From: a virus
Taxonomy: Duplodnaviria; Heunggongvirae; Uroviricota; Caudoviricetes
Reading direction: 5' to 3' (one strand)
DNA: 42,163 nucleotides
Virus record (IMG/VR): IMGVR_UViG_2728369608_000007
The notes under the pieces were generated by a model that saw only the letters and a list, made by a program, of their open reading frames with translations, was not told the DNA's origin and made no database searches. Every line of letters begins with the position of its first letter. Positions within the stretch are counted from its first letter, which is position 1. Below are positions 26,086 through 37,071 of this stretch, in pieces. The translations under genes were made by a program, and so were the position numbers.

Positions 26086-28347
26086 TTACAATCCAGATTG
26101 CAAAATTTCGCAAGATTTATATATTTCGCGCAATTCTTCGTTGCTGAAATCGTTATTTTTTACAAGAATCCAAATCCTATATACAAACCCGTCAATTTTT
26201 ACGCGTACGGGTTCCCGCTTTGTTCTTTCTTTCAAAATGCGAGTAATATGCTTCTGGTTAATTTCTACATCCATTCCTGCTTCTGCCAGTATTGCGTTAA
26301 CAATTTGTTGATAAGTCATTGCTGGCACAGGCGGATTATCCAGGATTTCAATAAGAGCAGCCTCCACATCGCTCTTATTGCTTTCAATCATCAGAAGGCG
26401 TTCTTTCGTCTCGGGGGCGCGCTGCCAGTTAAAGCGAGACAGGTCAACGCCCATCAGATACCAGTACACCTGGGCGATAAAGTCGCTGTCGCTTAGCGCA
26501 CCGTACAGGCTGGCGTAATGCTCTTCAGTTGCGGCGAAGTCAGGGCCCCCCAGCACAGCGATACGTCGGTCTTCCTCTGGCAGCGCCAGCGCATCAAAGT
26601 GGTTGGTGTAGAACAGAAAGCCGGTGTATATATCCATCGTTTTTTTGCTGCCATATTTGCGGTTCACTTCAAACCGTGGTTCTGTCAGCACGTCACGGAT
26701 CTTATCGTTCACCTCATACCGCTTATCATTTTCGCGCACCTCGTCAATGGTGCATAGAAGCGTATTGTACAGATAGTCATGGAACTGGTTATCGCACAGG
26801 ATCTTCATGCGAGTACGAGCACAGTTCCACGGACCAAGCACGCGCTCCATTAACTGGCTGACCCATCCTCTGCCCGTACCATGTGCGGAAGCCACATGCA
26901 GAATAGAAATCGGGCATCGACGCTCCGGACGCTGAACCATCCACCCCAGACGGGCGATGAAAAACTCGCGCTGCCAGGCATCAGGTACCAGATACGCCAT
27001 ATGATTAAGGAACGTGGACACCTTACTTGTATCCGCTGTACGTGGATGCTCAGGCATATAAAATTCGTTTATCTCAAACCGCCCGTCGAAACGCTCGATA
27101 ATACGTCCCGCACCGGGCTTATAGCCTGTCGTCTCAGCAATCTTCTTATGCCGATGCTCTATCCACCGTTTGGTTGCGGGAGTTGGTTGCCCTTTCCCTT
27201 CTGGCGGGAACTGGTAAGGCGCCATCAGGTTTTTGAACGACTTCATATCCATCATGCACTGATATGGCGGTCGGCTAAGATCACATACCTGGTCACCCTC
27301 GATGACGTAGATAAAGCGTTCCAGAAAATGAGCTGTCATATCTGTATTAATATCGGTAAATTCAGGCTTATCGCCATCTTCAACCACCGTGAGATCTTCG
27401 AACAGGGATTGCGTATAGCCGTAGCCTTCCAGCCAGTCGGCATCAGTAAGCCCCGCATCGGTGTTGTGCATGCTTTTAAAATGTCCCTGTTCAAATCCCC
27501 CCGTCCCTTTTGGGAAATACTTAATGGATGTTTCGCTGCAACCGTTGCTGTATTCTGACTCATCCCGAAACGGTTTCAGATTGCGGGAACCATCAGAGCT
27601 GACTGACAGAGTCCACCCGTTCGCGTCAAGCCAGTCGGCGACATCATCTGTCGCGGAAGGATCAACACAGGAAAGATCACGCTGACGTCCTGCACCTGCG
27701 GTATAGCTGTCTTTCACGGGTAAGTTATCCGCCAGACGCTGCCACAGGCTTTCGAGCTGTTCAGATGTAATTTTCAGAGGTTCGCCGGGCAGACCGCAGT
27801 CCCACTGAATACGTTCGCCTGCCGGATGGGTACCACAAGCCACAAACTGCTGGCCCTTAGCGAGCAGCTCTATTTGTTTGTTTTCGCCTTCCAGGCGGTG
27901 ACCACGTTTACGGTAGTCGCCATCAACAGCAATCAGGTACAGGCATTTATGACTGTCAGCCCGCCAGCGACGTGGCGGAAGTTCCCCCAGGCATGACAGG
28001 ATAATATTGCGTACGATCTCCTGCATCCCGGCGTCATTGATATCGCAGTCCAGAGCCACCACCCCGTCGCCAGTACGAACGCAAATACCGTAATCGGGTT
28101 CGTTCGACCACCGGGCAAAATCGTTTTCCGTAACAACATAGTTAGCCCAGTCGGGGATACCAACAACCTTACGTTGGCCATTGTAGCGACTGGGGGTTTT
28201 GCCGAAATTATGAGACAGCTTGCTATTAGGCGACAGTTCTGCACAGGGATTGGACACCACAGGTAAAAGCCTGTCTGTCATCCCCAACACCAGATCGAAG
28301 TGGAACCACTCATCGGGCGTAGCTCCCCATGGTTTGTTATCAGACAT
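26086..28347 (-). CDS. primase-helicase (replication initiation protein)
   Basis: 753-aa protein with N-terminal primase-polymerase-like region and C-terminal NTPase-like region; first gene after cro. Confidence 0.75.
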   Translation of the reverse strand: MSDNKPWGATPDEWFHFDLVLGMTDRLLPVVSNPCAELSPNSKLSHNFGKTPSRYNGQRKVVGIPDWANYVVTENDFARWSNEPDYGICVRTGDGVVALDCDINDAGMQEIVRNIILSCLGELPPRRWRADSHKCLYLIAVDGDYRKRGHRLEGENKQIELLAKGQQFVACGTHPAGERIQWDCGLPGEPLKITSEQLESLWQRLADNLPVKDSYTAGAGRQRDLSCVDPSATDDVADWLDANGWTLSVSSDGSRNLKPFRDESEYSNGCSETSIKYFPKGTGGFEQGHFKSMHNTDAGLTDADWLEGYGYTQSLFEDLTVVEDGDKPEFTDINTDMTAHFLERFIYVIEGDQVCDLSRPPYQCMMDMKSFKNLMAPYQFPPEGKGQPTPATKRWIEHRHKKIAETTGYKPGAGRIIERFDGRFEINEFYMPEHPRTADTSKVSTFLNHMAYLVPDAWQREFFIARLGWMVQRPERRCPISILHVASAHGTGRGWVSQLMERVLGPWNCARTRMKILCDNQFHDYLYNTLLCTIDEVRENDKRYEVNDKIRDVLTEPRFEVNRKYGSKKTMDIYTGFLFYTNHFDALALPEEDRRIAVLGGPDFAATEEHYASLYGALSDSDFIAQVYWYLMGVDLSRFNWQRAPETKERLLMIESNKSDVEAALIEILDNPPVPAMTYQQIVNAILAEAGMDVEINQKHITRILKERTKREPVRVKIDGFVYRIWILVKNNDFSNEELREIYKSCEILQSGL

Positions 28348-28350
28348 GGG

Positions 28351-28551
28351 TTACGCCTTTTGTCTAGCTGTCACTTCCTGAAAAAGCTTTTCTATCGCAC
28401 GTACTGTAGAAAAGCGAGGGTCAGAATGAACCCCGGTGAGAAGCCGACTAATAGAAGACTGCTTCACGCCTGCAATTTCGGCAATTTGGTTTTGGGTATA
28501 CCCTGAATCAATCAAGCTTTTGACCATCTCTTGTGGTGTTAGTCCGGACAT
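28351..28551 (-). CDS. Cro-like HTH transcriptional regulator
   Basis: 66-aa HTH protein (QNQIAEIAGVKQSSISRL) divergent from cI. Confidence 0.75.
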   Translation of the reverse strand: MSGLTPQEMVKSLIDSGYTQNQIAEIAGVKQSSISRLLTGVHSDPRFSTVRAIEKLFQEVTARQKA

Positions 28552-28692
28552 ATTTAAGTCTCCACTTTCGTCTATAGCGCAAATTTATACGAAAACGGAT
28601 TATTCAGCAATACGGCAATTCTATATCATCCTGGATTAAAATATCCGATAACGCATAATCACCGTCCCTGTATACAACATGGATGAATCCAA
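28552..28692. promoter_or_regulatory. divergent cI/cro promoter-operator region
   Basis: 141-bp intergenic region between divergent repressor genes; individual operators not resolved by eye. Confidence 0.5.
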
Positions 28693-29367
28693 ATGATTGA
28701 TACTACCGATATCCTTTCTCAAAACATCAAGTACCTGATGGACAAAGCCAAGATAAGCTCGATAACTGAGCTGGCACGTCGGTTACAACTGAACCAACCA
28801 ACGCTACACAGGCTGGTATCAGGAGAGGTGAAAGATCCGAAATACGCAACGTTAAAGCAGATCGCCGACTACTTCCACGTGTCACCAATAGACCTGGCAG
28901 AAAGGAGCCTTCAAGAAATGGAGAAAGAGGACGCGACGGGTATAAAAACGTATATTTCTCTTAGGTTTAATAAAGTACCTGTTTTGGGAAACACTCAGCT
29001 AGGCGTTGGAGGACTTTGGAGCGACACCCAATATTCAGTAGGTAGCAGTGATGGTTTCATATACTGGCCGACAAAGGATGAAGATGCATACGCCCTGAAA
29101 TGTGTTGGTGATTCAATGATGCCTAGAATCAAAGAGGGTGAGTTCGTAATCGTCGAACCCAACCACGACTACACTCCTGGTGATGAAGTACTTGTGGTTA
29201 CCCGGGACGGTGAGGTCATGGTTAAAACCTTCTTGTTCGAACGCGATGGCCTGTTCCATCTAATGTCTGTAAATGAAGATCATCCACCAGTCAGAGTACC
29301 ACGCGAAAACATTGAAAAAATCCATTACGTGGCGGGGATCGCCAAATCCGCGCTACGCATGTACTAA
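28693..29367 (+). CDS. CI-like repressor (HTH + S24 LexA-type peptidase domain)
   Basis: N-terminal HTH; C-terminal GDSM...K self-cleavage motif. Confidence 0.9.
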   Translation: MIDTTDILSQNIKYLMDKAKISSITELARRLQLNQPTLHRLVSGEVKDPKYATLKQIADYFHVSPIDLAERSLQEMEKEDATGIKTYISLRFNKVPVLGNTQLGVGGLWSDTQYSVGSSDGFIYWPTKDEDAYALKCVGDSMMPRIKEGEFVIVEPNHDYTPGDEVLVVTRDGEVMVKTFLFERDGLFHLMSVNEDHPPVRVPRENIEKIHYVAGIAKSALRMY

Positions 29368-29397: not shown

Positions 29398-29430
29398 AAA
29401 CCGCTCTCCACAAGGGCGGTTTTCTTATTT
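29398..29430 (+). terminator. intrinsic terminator downstream of cI
   Basis: AAACCGC-N11-GCGGTTT followed by a T-rich tail. Confidence 0.6.
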
Positions 29431-29451
29431 GCAAAATAATTCATTTTCGTA

Positions 29452-29509
29452 TTGACGCAAAATCCCATAACGCATATAAATACGATACCGCATAATTAAT
29501 GCGTTTTTT
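29452..29509 (+). promoter_or_regulatory. sigma70-like promoter (TTGACG-17-TATAAA) followed at once by hairpin plus T6
   Basis: -35 at 29452-29457, -10 at 29475-29480; CGCAT-AATTA-ATGCG hairpin at 29489-29503 then TTTTTT. Confidence 0.45.
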
Positions 29510-29742
29510 AATACCAGCTCTTTAACAAACTGAACCGCGTGACAGGTAAGCCGCAGTACTCCTGGCAAAATGAAATGGCACCCGATGGGATCGAGGTAAG
29601 CGCCGAGTCCGTATGCGTACGGTAAGCGTAGAGGACAACACCGCGACGAACTGATAAGTCACGCAAGTTGAAACGCCCCGACGATGGGGCGCTTAGTTCC
29701 TTTAACTCTGGGTGGCCGGAAGGGTACCCATGCTTAAAGAAA

Positions 29743-30312
29743 TTACTGGTTGTAAGGATCGTAATCCGTGATTGCCTTCCCCGGATTTTCATCTTCAGCA
29801 GGCAGTCTGGCCTCTAAAGCATTTCGGTTGAACAGATAGGAAGCCCTACAGTGCGAACAAACCATATTAACGGCTCGCCCAAGGCCTGGCTTAATAACCA
29901 GACCTTCCGCTTGCAATATAGATTTTCTCTTTTGCTCGTAGCAATTGGGACAAATATAAACCGGAGATTGGTCAGTATCTGCAGAAAGCTTGCTGCGATA
30001 GACCAGAGTACCCCGCATAGGCTGGTAAAGTTCATAGCTCGCCGCTTCAGCGGCCCAGTTCTCTTGCTTTACTTTCTCATTTTCCAGTTCAACAATTTTC
30101 TCCTTAGCCGCAATCAGCAGCTCCTGAAGCGACATTTGCTGCATCTGAACATCCATTAGCTTATCGAGTAAGGTGTGCGTCTTCTCTTTAACTGCATAGT
30201 CGACAGTCAGATTCTGAATCTCTCTTGCTGCTCCAACCGCGCCTTTAATTGCTCCTCCCACGCCGGATAACGATTCAGTTATCCGGGAAAGAATTCCTTT
30301 TTCTTCAGACAT
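29743..30312 (-). CDS. hypothetical coiled-coil protein with C-terminal zinc ribbon (CPNC...CSHC)
   Basis: 189-aa ORF convergent with cI; direct repeats in its upstream region; hairpin GCCCC-N6-GGGGC downstream at 29675-29690. Confidence 0.6.
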   Translation of the reverse strand: MSEEKGILSRITESLSGVGGAIKGAVGAAREIQNLTVDYAVKEKTHTLLDKLMDVQMQQMSLQELLIAAKEKIVELENEKVKQENWAAEAASYELYQPMRGTLVYRSKLSADTDQSPVYICPNCYEQKRKSILQAEGLVIKPGLGRAVNMVCSHCRASYLFNRNALEARLPAEDENPGKAITDYDPYNQ

Positions 30313-30536
30313 ATCTAATCTCTCTCAAACTGTAGGGGTGAAGAGATATTAGACGATTTCTCACTGTAGGGGTACAAGGAGAACCACCTCGCCTGATGTG
30401 GTTAAAAGCAGGCACTCGATGATATCCATGTAATTGCTGTGTGTAGTCTTTGCCCGCCGCAAATGACGGGCTTTTTTATGTCTGAAAGCGCACTCGCAAC
30501 AGCGCGCTCCCCGATATGAAAAAAGGAATACAACCG

Positions 30537-33505: not shown

Positions 33506-34135
33506 TCACTCAGGAATCTTAATCTTTCTCAATTCTTTATTTAGTTCACAGATCTTTTTCTTAGACGGGAAAGTATCATACATCCAAAAACCAACAGTCT
33601 CTAAAACTATTATCATAACCATATACACAAGATAATTTAAAAGGCCTTCATTTTGCCCTATGGAAATAATGCAGATAATAGAAAAAAGGGTAAACAGCAC
33701 AAAACACAGAAAGGAAAACAGACGACTAATAATAAATAAAAAACCTGAAAAATCAACATTAATAAAAAACACTCCGTTATCTTTCTCTATATAATTCTGA
33801 AGCTTAATCAACTGATTTATATACTGTCTTTTTTCTAATCTATTGCAAATGTAAATAACATCTCTTCGGTTATAAGAGGATTGCAATTTCAGCGCATCAC
33901 GAATAATTTTATCATTTATTCTTTTTTCTATGGCTTTCTTATCCTCCTTATCCAGATAACGTTCATACTTAATTAAATATAAAATTAACTTCTTGACATA
34001 TTTAGGCTCTTTATACTTATAATTAAAAATGATCTTTCTTATCCAGACTCCCATAACAATCAAACATGAAAAAATATATCCAGCTATTTTCTCCAGATGC
34101 TCTGTATGGTCAATCAAGTATTGGATCATATGCAT
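33506..34135 (-). CDS. hypothetical membrane protein (moron, antisense to the replication operon)
   Basis: 209-aa ORF in very AT-rich DNA; hydrophobic segments at N-terminus and in the C-terminal third; K/E/Y-rich middle. Confidence 0.65.
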   Translation of the reverse strand: MHMIQYLIDHTEHLEKIAGYIFSCLIVMGVWIRKIIFNYKYKEPKYVKKLILYLIKYERYLDKEDKKAIEKRINDKIIRDALKLQSSYNRRDVIYICNRLEKRQYINQLIKLQNYIEKDNGVFFINVDFSGFLFIISRLFSFLCFVLFTLFSIICIISIGQNEGLLNYLVYMVMIIVLETVGFWMYDTFPSKKKICELNKELRKIKIPE

Positions 34136-34181: not shown

Positions 34182-36245
34182 ATGTCCAATATACTATGGG
34201 GCGACCTGGAAACCTATTGCGAAATCCCTATTACGAACGGTACCCATGCGTATGCCGAAGGCGTTGAAGTGATGCTTTTCGCATGGGCTATCAACGACGG
34301 GCCAGTAAACGTGTGGGATATCACTGCCGGTGGTGGTATTCCACACGGCTTATACGAAGCAATCGCAGACCCTGAAACCCTGCTTTATTTCCATAACTCT
34401 CACTTCGACCGCACCGTTCTGCGTTATGCAATGCCGCGACTGGCACCGCCAGTCGAACGTTGGCGCGACACGATGGTGCAGGCGCTGGCGCACGGTCTCC
34501 CGGGGTCTCTGGGGGAACTCTGCGAAGTACTAGGCGTCCCGCAAGACAAAGCGAAGGACAAAGAAGGTAAAGCGCTGATCCAGCTGTTCTGTAAGCCACG
34601 TCCGAAAAACAGCAAACTGCGTCGGGCCACCAGTAAAACCCATCCGGAAGAATGGCGGCGCTTTGTTGCTTACGCCGGACTGGATATCGAAGCAATGCGT
34701 GAAGTCTATAAACGTCTGCCGAAGTGGAATTATCAGGGGACAGAGCTGGCGCTCTGGCATCGTGATCAGCAGATCAACGACCGGGGCGTCTGCATGGACA
34801 TGCAACTCGCGCGCGCTGCGATCGAAGCGGTAGACCAGGAGCAAAAGCGCCTGGCAAAGCGTACACAGGAAATGACTGATGGCGAAGTGCAGGCAGCCAC
34901 ACAACGGGACGCGTTGATTAAGCACATCGTTGAATCCTACGGTGTGGAGCTACCAGACATGCAACGCAGTACCCTGGAACGTCGTATGGCCGACCCCGAT
35001 TTATCATCTGCCGTGAAAGAACTGCTGGCTATCCGCCTGCAAGCCAGTACTACCAGCACCAGTAAATACAAGGCACTGATGAAAGGCGTAAGCCACGACG
35101 GGCGCTTACGCGGTACGCTACAGTTCTGCGGGGCGTCACGTACCGGTCGTTGGGCCGGACGGCTATTCCAGCCCCAGAACCTTCCCCGCCCTTCACTAAA
35201 ACAGGAACAAATAGACGAAGGCATCGAAGCACTGAAAGCCGGATGTGCAGACCTGCTGTTTGACAATATCATGGAACTAACCAGTTCAGCGTTACGTGGC
35301 TGCATTATCGCGCCAACAGGCAAAAAACTAGTGGTAAGTGACTTGTCAAACATTGAAGGCCGTATGCTGGCATGGCTGGCGGGAGAAGAATGGAAACTGA
35401 ATGCATTCAGAGAGTATGACGCTGGAACGGGTCCGGACTTATATAAACTGGCGTATGCAAAAGCTTTCGATATTGCACCAGATGATGTTGATAAACACAT
35501 GCGTCAGATCGGTAAAGTCATGGAACTCGGTCTGGGTTATGGAGGTGGTGTATCGGCTTTCATCACTTTTGCTCTGGTTTACGGTCTCGATCTCGACGAG
35601 CTGGCGAACGCCGCACTGCCAAACATTCCCCGCGATGTTATCCGCGAGGCAAAAAGCTGGTACGACGAATCGGTTAAGCGTAAGTCGACCTTTGGCCTGT
35701 CCGAGCGTGTATTCATCGCATGTGACTCGCTCAAGCGCCTGTGGCGCAGGGCGCACCCGGCGACCTGCGATTTCTGGTACGAGCTGGAGCGCACTGTCCG
35801 CACAGCAATCGCCACACCGCAAAAAACATTGTATTGCGGCTATCTTAAAATCCGACGTGATGGCGCGTGGCTGCGCATACAGCTACCATCCGGACGCGCT
35901 GTATGCTACCCGTCTCCGGTTATCGAACAAGGGAATATCACCTACATGGGTGTTAACTCTTATTCGCGTAAATGGCAACGACTCAAAACCTACGGCGGAA
36001 AGCTGGTGGAGAACGTCACCCAGGCGGCCGCCCGCGACGTTCTAGCCAGAAACATGCCGCTGATCGAGGGTGCCGGTTACAGCATTGTGCTAACGGTACA
36101 CGACGAGGTGATCACCGAAGCACCAGACACAGAAGATTTCAACGATAAAGCGCTTTCCGCGCTTCTCTCCACTAACCCCGAATGGGCACCCGATATTCCG
36201 CTGAACGCTGGCGGCTTTGAGGCGTACCACTACAAAAAAGATTGA
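34182..36245 (+). CDS. DNA polymerase, family A, with 3'-5' exonuclease domain
   Basis: Exo motif GDLETY; polymerase motifs DLSNIEGR (A), K...LGLGYG (B), VHDE (C). Confidence 0.9.
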
Positions 36246-36309: not shown

Positions 36310-37071
36310 ATGCAGGAACTAACTGAAATGCCGATCAACTATCCATACCCGAGAGAATCTTTTCCTGACTTTTTGAGGGAGTGTGGGTTCACCAATTTTT
36401 CCCACGAACAGCGTGAGACTTATGACTGCTATCGTTTAACGAATGGCGTAATTGTTAACCTTTACACCACCCGGACCATTCAGTTTCAAGGGAACCCTCA
36501 AGAACGTCCCAATGTTGAAACTGCAATAATGTCCCATTTAGGAACGCCCCCCACGGCAACACCACTAGCCGTAGAACAGCCATCTGAGCTTCCCAAAAAG
36601 ATATTCATTGTTCACGGCCATGACCATACTGCAAAGGAACAACTTGAGCTAATCCTTCATAAACTTGGATTACCAGACCATTTCATTTTGCAGAATACGG
36701 GAGGGACTGGACTCACCATTATTGAAGAGCTTGAACGTGAAATTGGGCAAGGACAAACTGCTACTCGTTTCGGGATTGTTCTTTTGACACCTGATGATAT
36801 GGGATACTCAAAGCGCGCCGGTGAAGCAGAAATCCAACCCCGCGCAAGACAGAACGTTGTACTCGAGATGGGTATGCTTCTTTCGTCCTTAGGGCGCAGC
36901 AATGTAGCAATCCTTCAGAAACAGCACCTAGAACAGCCTTCTGATGCTAACGGGATTTTGTATCTGAATTTCAACGACCATGTACGTGAAACAGTTCCTC
37001 GTCTAGTGCAACGGTTACAAAATTCTGGTTTCGAATTTACACAAGCTCAAATAGCTAACGCTTCCTCGTAA
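36310..37071 (+). CDS. hypothetical protein with C-terminal TIR-like/SLOG-type domain
   Basis: KIFIVHGHD ... FGIVLLTPDD ... ARQNVVLEMGMLL matches the TIR-like nucleotide-binding domain signature (conserved Glu in NVxxExG); N-terminal about 100 aa unknown. Confidence 0.7.
   Translation: MQELTEMPINYPYPRESFPDFLRECGFTNFSHEQRETYDCYRLTNGVIVNLYTTRTIQFQGNPQERPNVETAIMSHLGTPPTATPLAVEQPSELPKKIFIVHGHDHTAKEQLELILHKLGLPDHFILQNTGGTGLTIIEELEREIGQGQTATRFGIVLLTPDDMGYSKRAGEAEIQPRARQNVVLEMGMLLSSLGRSNVAILQKQHLEQPSDANGILYLNFNDHVRETVPRLVQRLQNSGFEFTQAQIANASS

Follow-up and report, generated by a model that had tools for sequence, protein, structure and literature searches.

A probable Rip1-family abortive-infection gene at the sieB position of an Escherichia prophage, preceded by a conserved promoter and antisense-RNA module

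The stretch of DNA that we analyzed (42,163 nucleotides, hereafter the window) has the same sequence as the temperate Escherichia phage vB_EcoM-606R2 (ON470579), with 2564 to be subtracted from record positions to obtain those of the window; the prophage adjoins tadA/pgpC. A primase-helicase gene (26086-28347) and a cro-like gene (28351-28551) run leftward on its minus strand and are followed by a LexA-type cI on the plus strand (28693-29367) and, after cI, by a terminator-like hairpin (29398-29422). Beyond this hairpin, we read from the sequence a strong promoter-like site, TTGACG-N17-TATAAA (29452-29480, plus strand), that resembles an early promoter of the PL type. Three 14-bp palindromes of the form ATNCG-N4-CGNAT lie over it (29439-29452, 29462-29475 and 29480-29493), and the same repeat family is found in the cI-cro intergenic region (28587-28610 and 28640-28657). 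The palindromes common to both regions are the presumptive operators of the LexA-type repressor CI. Further on, as an earlier note on this DNA had described, a gene for a 189-aa protein occupies positions 29743-30312 of the minus strand, convergent with cI, and its translation contains the motifs CPNC (...ICPNCYEQ...) and CSHC (...VCSHCRAS...). This gene, the rip1 homolog of the following paragraphs, is preceded by a 203-bp intergenic region, beyond which the plus-strand early operon continues with a 56-aa ORF, a 300-aa ORF, a DUF2800 nuclease, an Enc34-type SSB, a DNA polymerase and other genes. A consensus promoter scan listed neither the PL-like promoter, because its -10 ends in A, nor the PsieB-type promoter of the rip1 homolog; both were recognized by reading and by homology.

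The gene had been assigned to the position where lambda carries rexAB. Genes of the rexAB type share the strand of cI, lie between cI and OL/PL and are co-transcribed with cI from PRM. This placement had to be given up, as the gene and cI are convergent and are separated by both the terminator-like hairpin and the PL-like promoter, with the gene antisense to PL-type transcription, like lambda sieB. Indeed, the rip1 homologs of HK446 (gp37, which is Rip1) and HK620 (HkaP) are found downstream of PL and N and antisense to the PL operon, in the same slot where lambda and P22 carry sieB. The arrangement is hence that of a moron in the sieB slot, located downstream of the PL-like promoter and antisense to transcription of the PL type. 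The broader proposal of an exclusion-gene slot is thus borne out by the location of the HK446 and HK620 homologs, as well as by the homology of the upstream region to P22 PsieB.

The borders of the insertion were obtained from two related prophages. The first (L006), which shares the immunity region, is about 97% identical to the window up to position 29691 and again from 30424, and between these points it harbors a different small plus-strand ORF and no rip1. In the second (L005), which has the same early operon without rip1, homology resumes at 30425. Because the identity with L006 stops at 29691 and restarts at 30424, we delimited the inserted cassette, comprising the rip1 homolog and its PsieB/sas-type control region, to positions 29692-30423. 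The existence of two relatives without the gene is in good agreement with the earlier view of a self-contained moron with its own promoter, located where lambdoid phages keep exclusion genes. The same comparison led us to reinterpret the hairpin GCCCC-GACGAT-GGGGC (GCCCC-N6-GGGGC, 29675-29690), which is present as described but is not specific to the gene: since it is common to L006, which lacks rip1, and homology ends exactly at 29691, it belongs to the backbone, at the left junction of the cassette. We therefore rejected it as a terminator travelling with rip1; as a backbone element, it may stop rip1 transcription. On the plus strand, this hairpin, resembling a boxB-type stem-loop, forms the end of a leader of about 190 nt (29500-29691) that extends from the PL-like promoter to the cassette junction and is kept in a relative with different cargo; no N-like gene was seen.

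We next turn to the protein. Its AlphaFold model (pLDDT 74) consists of long helices (residues 7-34 and 39-90) followed by a beta-rich C-terminal domain that harbors four invariant cysteines (C121, C124, C152 and C155). Compared by Foldseek, the model matched the structure "HK446 Rip1 in complex with phage T6 small terminase" (PDB 9OOX) with an E value of 1.6e-10 and a TM score of 0.87 on the target. At the sequence level, phmmer against chain L of 9OOX gave an E value of 8.5e-48 (residues 3-166 versus 3-162), and BLASTP against HK446 Rip1 gave 52% identity end to end (E 1e-59). An exhaustive profile search (cutoff E <= 1e-3) recovered a family of proteins of about 150-190 aa with 3451 representatives, in which Y93, Y105 and the four cysteines are invariant, while a word-indexed protein search had found only 16 close relatives, none of them named. 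No significant match was obtained in Pfam, NCBIfam or PADLOC 2.0, libraries that predate or lack Rip1, and the sole match in PHROGs was phrog_1244, for which no function is annotated there. Membership in the SieB family was rejected, as phrog_1244 was the only hit and no SieB family appeared among the Pfam and PHROG matches. The protein thus has full-length sequence similarity to a characterized Rip1 and the corresponding fold, with an N-terminal helical part and a C-terminal domain equivalent to the ring-contacting one of Rip1; its gene is prophage encoded and set apart from the lytic genes, on the strand opposite to the early operon and behind a predicted PsieB-type promoter. Because of the phmmer, BLASTP, Foldseek and locus matches, we filed the gene under the Rip1 family, the likeness covering sequence, fold and type of locus. 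The description of the function as unknown is thereby outdated.

Rip1 (ring interacting pore 1) was described by Patel, McCarthy, Taylor et al. (Nature 651:1060, 2026; via the review PMC13434031). According to this review and a meeting report (PMC12908700), it is a single prophage protein that is harmless by itself and whose homologs are widespread among proteobacterial prophages. Its C-terminal domain binds round the small-terminase or portal ring of a superinfecting phage, about 12 copies encircling the 11-mer terminase ring, and its N-terminal amphipathic helices form an inner-membrane pore that permeabilizes the membranes, so that the cell dies before the progeny of the incoming phage mature. 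Escape mutants were found in portal genes for Pseudomonas phages and in small-terminase genes for E. coli phages, and anti-phage activity, ring activation and pore formation are known only for HK446 and Pseudomonas Rip1 (PMC13434031, PMC12908700). A defined, recently discovered defense mechanism is hence assigned to a "hypothetical protein," with activity and trigger predicted by homology; for the specificity of the trigger, this prediction is made at only 52% identity to the solved Rip1.

The closest known system, HK446 Rip1, shares with our gene the helical-hairpin and Cys4 beta-domain fold, its location in a prophage, transcription against the early operon and the same upstream module of about 95 bp with both repeats. 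However, the protein studied here is 25 aa longer at its C terminus, in a tail modeled with low confidence, and the phage is not lambdoid: it encodes a primase-helicase, a family-A polymerase, a DUF2800 nuclease and an Enc34-type SSB, has a myovirus-type tail and carries no N gene upstream. HK620 HkaP, annotated as "putative superinfection exclusion protein," and orf25 of Pseudomonas phage D3112 are members of the same protein family, but their sequences have diverged much further (26-35% identity). The upstream module is also found in front of the HkaP gene, which occupies the sieB slot, whereas Pseudomonas-type loci are devoid of the PsieB/sas module. In D3112, orf25 is found on the opposite strand, flanked by orf24, which is annotated as a DNA-binding protein and occupies the small-terminase position, and by the gene for the large terminase, in agreement with the Pseudomonas Rip1 locus described in the review (PMC13434031). 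The exclusion genes of Pseudomonas phage Fc02 were also considered and are different genes from the rip1 homolog.

This packaging-module location in Pseudomonas phages, together with the binding of Rip1-type proteins to terminase rings, would also fit an early function in the phage itself, for instance as a packaging or recombination accessory with affinity for the phage's own terminase, rather than a defense function, and an antisense placement in the early operon could mean lytic-cycle regulation. Such a function is highly improbable. Indeed, a function common to all relatives was not found, as rip1 is absent from the two close relatives, although their early, packaging and replication genes are the same. 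Furthermore, the gene is on the strand opposite to all neighboring lytic genes, its promoter module is that of a known lysogen-expressed exclusion gene, and published work gives the family a defense activity (PMC13434031).

We then analyzed the region upstream of the gene. The 11-mer ACTGTAGGGGT occurs exactly twice in the window (30329-30339 and 30363-30373), and the two copies flank a TAATAT hexamer (30351 to 30346 on the coding strand), just as the earlier note had reported. This hexamer (30346-30351, minus strand) corresponds to the -10 of a PsieB-type promoter. By homology to P22 PsieB, the promoter-proximal copy (30329-30339), which reads ACCCCTACAGT on the coding strand, would cover about +1 to +10 of the mRNA, and the promoter-distal copy (30363-30373) would overlap the -35 region at about -34 to -25. 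The latter copy is part of a TGTA-CCCC-TACA palindrome, for which a LexA box and a CRP-like site were both dropped because of ill-fitting half-sites. We likewise discarded a type III toxin-antitoxin repeat array, since there are just two short copies with an unrelated spacer. A Shine-Dalgarno-like GAGAGAG (30320-30326, minus strand), also read from the sequence, is located 7 nt before the ATG, and its GAGAG is kept in homologous upstream regions. Dinucleotide shuffles of the window gave 0.66 exact 11-mer pairs within 60 nt and at least one such pair in 39.5% of the shuffles. The repeat by itself is therefore within chance, and its significance comes from its conservation across loci.

An identity of 83-87% links positions 30325-30415 with lambda 34395-34485, which immediately precedes sieB, with P22 29651-29736 and with the sequences in front of HK446 rip1 and HK620 hkaP. 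For the P22 segment, which encloses the annotated PsieB, the identity is 86%. The P22 record (AF527608) places PsieB at 29690-29720 (TGTACC-N19-TAAACT), and its TAAACT is matched in the alignment by TAATAT here and by TAAAAT in HK446 and HK620. The proximal repeat copy is identical in lambda, P22, HK446 and HK620 and lies inside the region homologous to P22 sas RNA. By these alignments, the upstream block of about 95 bp is a homolog of the PsieB region of lambda and P22. Both features expected of a PsieB/sas module are found, namely, homology to the mapped PsieB and sas RNA of P22, and a conserved -10 accompanied by conserved RNA helices.

In order to avoid selecting on the repeat itself, we gathered loci through the Rip1 protein and obtained 13 distinct upstream regions of enterobacterial homologs (31-100% protein identity). 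The core of the distal copy, TACCCCTACA, was base-identical in all 13 (with an extra C in one locus), the proximal copy was nearly so, and the -10 was invariant at positions 1, 2 and 6 (TAnnnT). The spacer between the copies varied (40-70% conserved), except for TAnnnT and an invariant GAGA adjoining the distal copy. Two loci (L172 and L175) carried the same G-to-A change in both copies (ACCCCTACAA); in three others, one copy was changed or both were changed differently, and two loci retained the helices without the repeats. A pattern search of IMG/VR additionally recovered at least 120 prophage loci with both copies, and at least 80% of the 203-bp upstream region was present in 76 of 5,426 complete E. 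coli genomes. Nearly all genes behind the two-copy module in IMG/VR encode SieB-type membrane proteins or Rip1-type proteins, the SieB-type cargo being hydrophobic and unrelated in sequence to the Rip1 homolog. Enterobacterial prophage rip1 genes hence travel with the same control module as sieB. A few of these IMG/VR loci (L095 and L008) have neither SieB nor Rip1 but instead a 105-aa membrane-like protein or an 83-aa protein, possibly further exclusion genes on this module.

The copies are far better conserved than their spacer. They flank the -10 at a spacing of 34 bp, one on the -35 region and the other on the start site, and in L172 and L175 both bear the same change. This is what one would expect of operators through which a DNA-binding regulator would switch the promoter, be it a factor shared by many phages or one from the host. 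The prophage repressor, one of the candidates named earlier, does not qualify. Both the motif and the immunity specificity speak against CI or Cro: the cI-cro and PL-like regions share ATNCG-N4-CGNAT and not ACTGTAGGGGT, and the repeats are identical in the heteroimmune phages lambda, P22, HK620 and HK446. Repeats that are identical across unrelated repressors and unlike the phage's own operator-like palindromes are therefore not CI/Cro operators. As for another regulator, the cassette brings no candidate gene for one, the region corresponds in P22 to a detected RNA (sas), and the distal copy is part of a hairpin, the stem of which shows a covarying change in L172. We thus consider operators unlikely and favor a conservation of the repeats as part of a module that serves both as promoter and as antisense RNA.

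In P22, sas inhibits SieB synthesis. Ranade and Poteete reportedly found in 1993 that this antisense RNA switches translation from SieB to the antidote Esc. The plus strand of the window aligns with the 127-nt P22 sas RNA over its whole length, which puts a sas-like antisense region, with presumed ends in this phage, at 30308-30423 (plus strand). Its content is the complement of the rip1 start codon, the Shine-Dalgarno-like site, both repeats and the promoter, followed by two overlapping helices. The P22 RNA, listed as P22A-sas in a 2026 small-RNA study of that phage (PMC13397905, Table 2), begins slightly 5' to the nucleotides complementary to the start codon of sieB, crosses both CUGUAGGGGU copies and ends after AACCACCGAGCCUGACGUGGUUAAAAGACAGGC.

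The two helices (30382-30413, plus strand, with folding on either strand) are interleaved, with arms at 30382-30387/30398-30403 and 30391-30395/30409-30413. Their arm sequences, GCCTG/CAGGC and AACCAC/GTGGTT, are those of the 3' part of P22 sas RNA. Across 28 distinct sequences, 91% of the cells were paired, compared to 18-43% in slid controls, and 5 of the 11 pairs had changed on both sides (15 such cells), a covariation score reached by none of 500 shuffles. Among the G-U pairs, three favor each strand. The helices may represent either alternative hairpins or an H-type pseudoknot. In the fold of P22 sas, the distal repeat copy is part of a UGUA-GGGG-UACA hairpin, and in L172, the G-to-A change in this copy is matched by a change in the opposite hairpin arm. 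Because the PsieB homology, the alignment to sas and the covarying helices coincide, we interpret the block as a dual-use element, with a promoter on one strand and a structured antisense RNA from the opposite one.

The likeness to the sieB-esc-sas systems of P22 and lambda comprises the homologous promoter/antisense region with its 83-87% identity, both repeats and both helices, and the genomic logic of a lysogen-expressed abortive-infection gene lying antisense in the PL operon. The cargo is unrelated, however: SieB belongs to the membrane proteins, whereas Rip1 remains soluble until it is triggered, and a counterpart of the internal product Esc of P22 is not evident for the rip1 homolog.

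This conservation might simply reflect a recent spread of the cassette by recombination, the 95-bp block then being a mosaic junction or linker and the duplication being functionless. Indeed, lambdoid genomes swap modules at conserved boundary sequences, the block adjoins many different cargo genes, and chance alone gives 0.66 pairs of an 11-mer within 60 nt in each window. However, the cargo proteins are only 31-54% identical and the spacer and flanks have diverged, yet the repeat cores, TAnnnT and the helices, the latter with compensatory changes, have been kept. This pattern argues for selection rather than recent common descent, and we regard a functionless linker as very unlikely.

We therefore favor, with a probability of roughly three in four, a Rip1-family abortive-infection moron cassette in which the repeats are conserved as part of a dual-use promoter/antisense-RNA module and not as operators of a phage repressor. 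In the lysogen, rip1 would be transcribed at a low constitutive level from the weak PsieB-type promoter, which has a good -10 (TAATAT) and a poor -35, with the two ACCCCTACAG copies at about -34 to -25 and +1 to +10. Upon induction, the PL-like promoter (29452-29480) would fire and transcription would run antisense across rip1, producing a sas-like RNA complementary to the rip1 5' untranslated region, Shine-Dalgarno sequence and start codon. By analogy with the action of P22 sas on SieB, this RNA would shut off new Rip1 synthesis during the phage's own lytic growth, and the terminase and portal rings of the prophage would therefore trigger no suicide. The proposed transcription start, the presumed sas-like RNA and its predicted action on Rip1 are carried over from P22 sieB, a system with unrelated cargo. 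Moreover, the model would account for the conservation of the 10-nt motif but not for its double occurrence, and it is complicated by an RprA-like terminator that separates the first early gene from the antisense region. The linkage of Rip1 to sas suggests a general answer to self-killing by abortive-infection prophages, namely, antisense silencing from the early lytic promoter. The main interest of the locus lies in this linkage and in the RprA-like neighbor.

The RprA-like module (30424-30477, plus strand) belongs to the prophage backbone and is located directly 3' of the sas-like region, before the first early gene. Alignment with K-12 rprA revealed a stretch of 24 nt (30432-30455) identical to the 3' half of the E. 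coli gene, followed by an intrinsic terminator composed of a hairpin (30452-30471), whose stem sequence differs from that of rprA, and a T-run (30472-30477). The 5' half of the phage element is unrelated to RprA, and no promoter of its own was found. Against Rfam RF00034, the module scored 50.2 bits (E 1.3e-4); since the gathering score is 70, it falls outside the RprA family by this test. The elements of relatives scored 49-58 bits. Such elements are present in the relatives without rip1 (L005, 2501-2560; L006, 2501-2558), and they follow the same module in other prophages, including the L137 and L138 upstream regions, with Rip1 or SieB cargo. P22 and lambda lack an RprA-like terminator, whereas the sas-like region here runs straight into one. 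No description of an RprA-like phage element was found in the literature searched. StxS, an sRNA that arises from early termination of a phage transcript, provides a precedent for a terminator-derived sRNA (PMC7547250), and the RprA-like element is likewise found just downstream of an early phage promoter region.

The sas-type region and the RprA-like seed and terminator could conceivably make up a single Hfq-type RNA with two jobs, silencing rip1 in cis and, as a mimic of the processed host sRNA RprA, reprogramming host stress and biofilm targets in trans. The repeated CUGUAGGGGU would then be an RNA recognition element, used for loop-first pairing with the mRNA 5' end or as a processing site, rather than a DNA operator. 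We propose this only tentatively and think it doubtful. The RprA-like neighbor hints at prophages copying host sRNA seeds into their early leaders.

Two other genes of the early region deserve mention. A 209-aa ORF (33506-34135, minus strand) between the SSB and DNA polymerase genes, rich in I, K, Y and F and with hydrophobic stretches, had no Pfam or PADLOC match and looks like another moron. Downstream, the early operon encodes a TIR-domain protein (36310-37071, plus strand; Pfam CAP12/Pycsar TIR, 2.9e-31) that matches the PADLOC candidate defense system PDC-S35 (1.2e-108) and is possibly a second defense gene of the same prophage.
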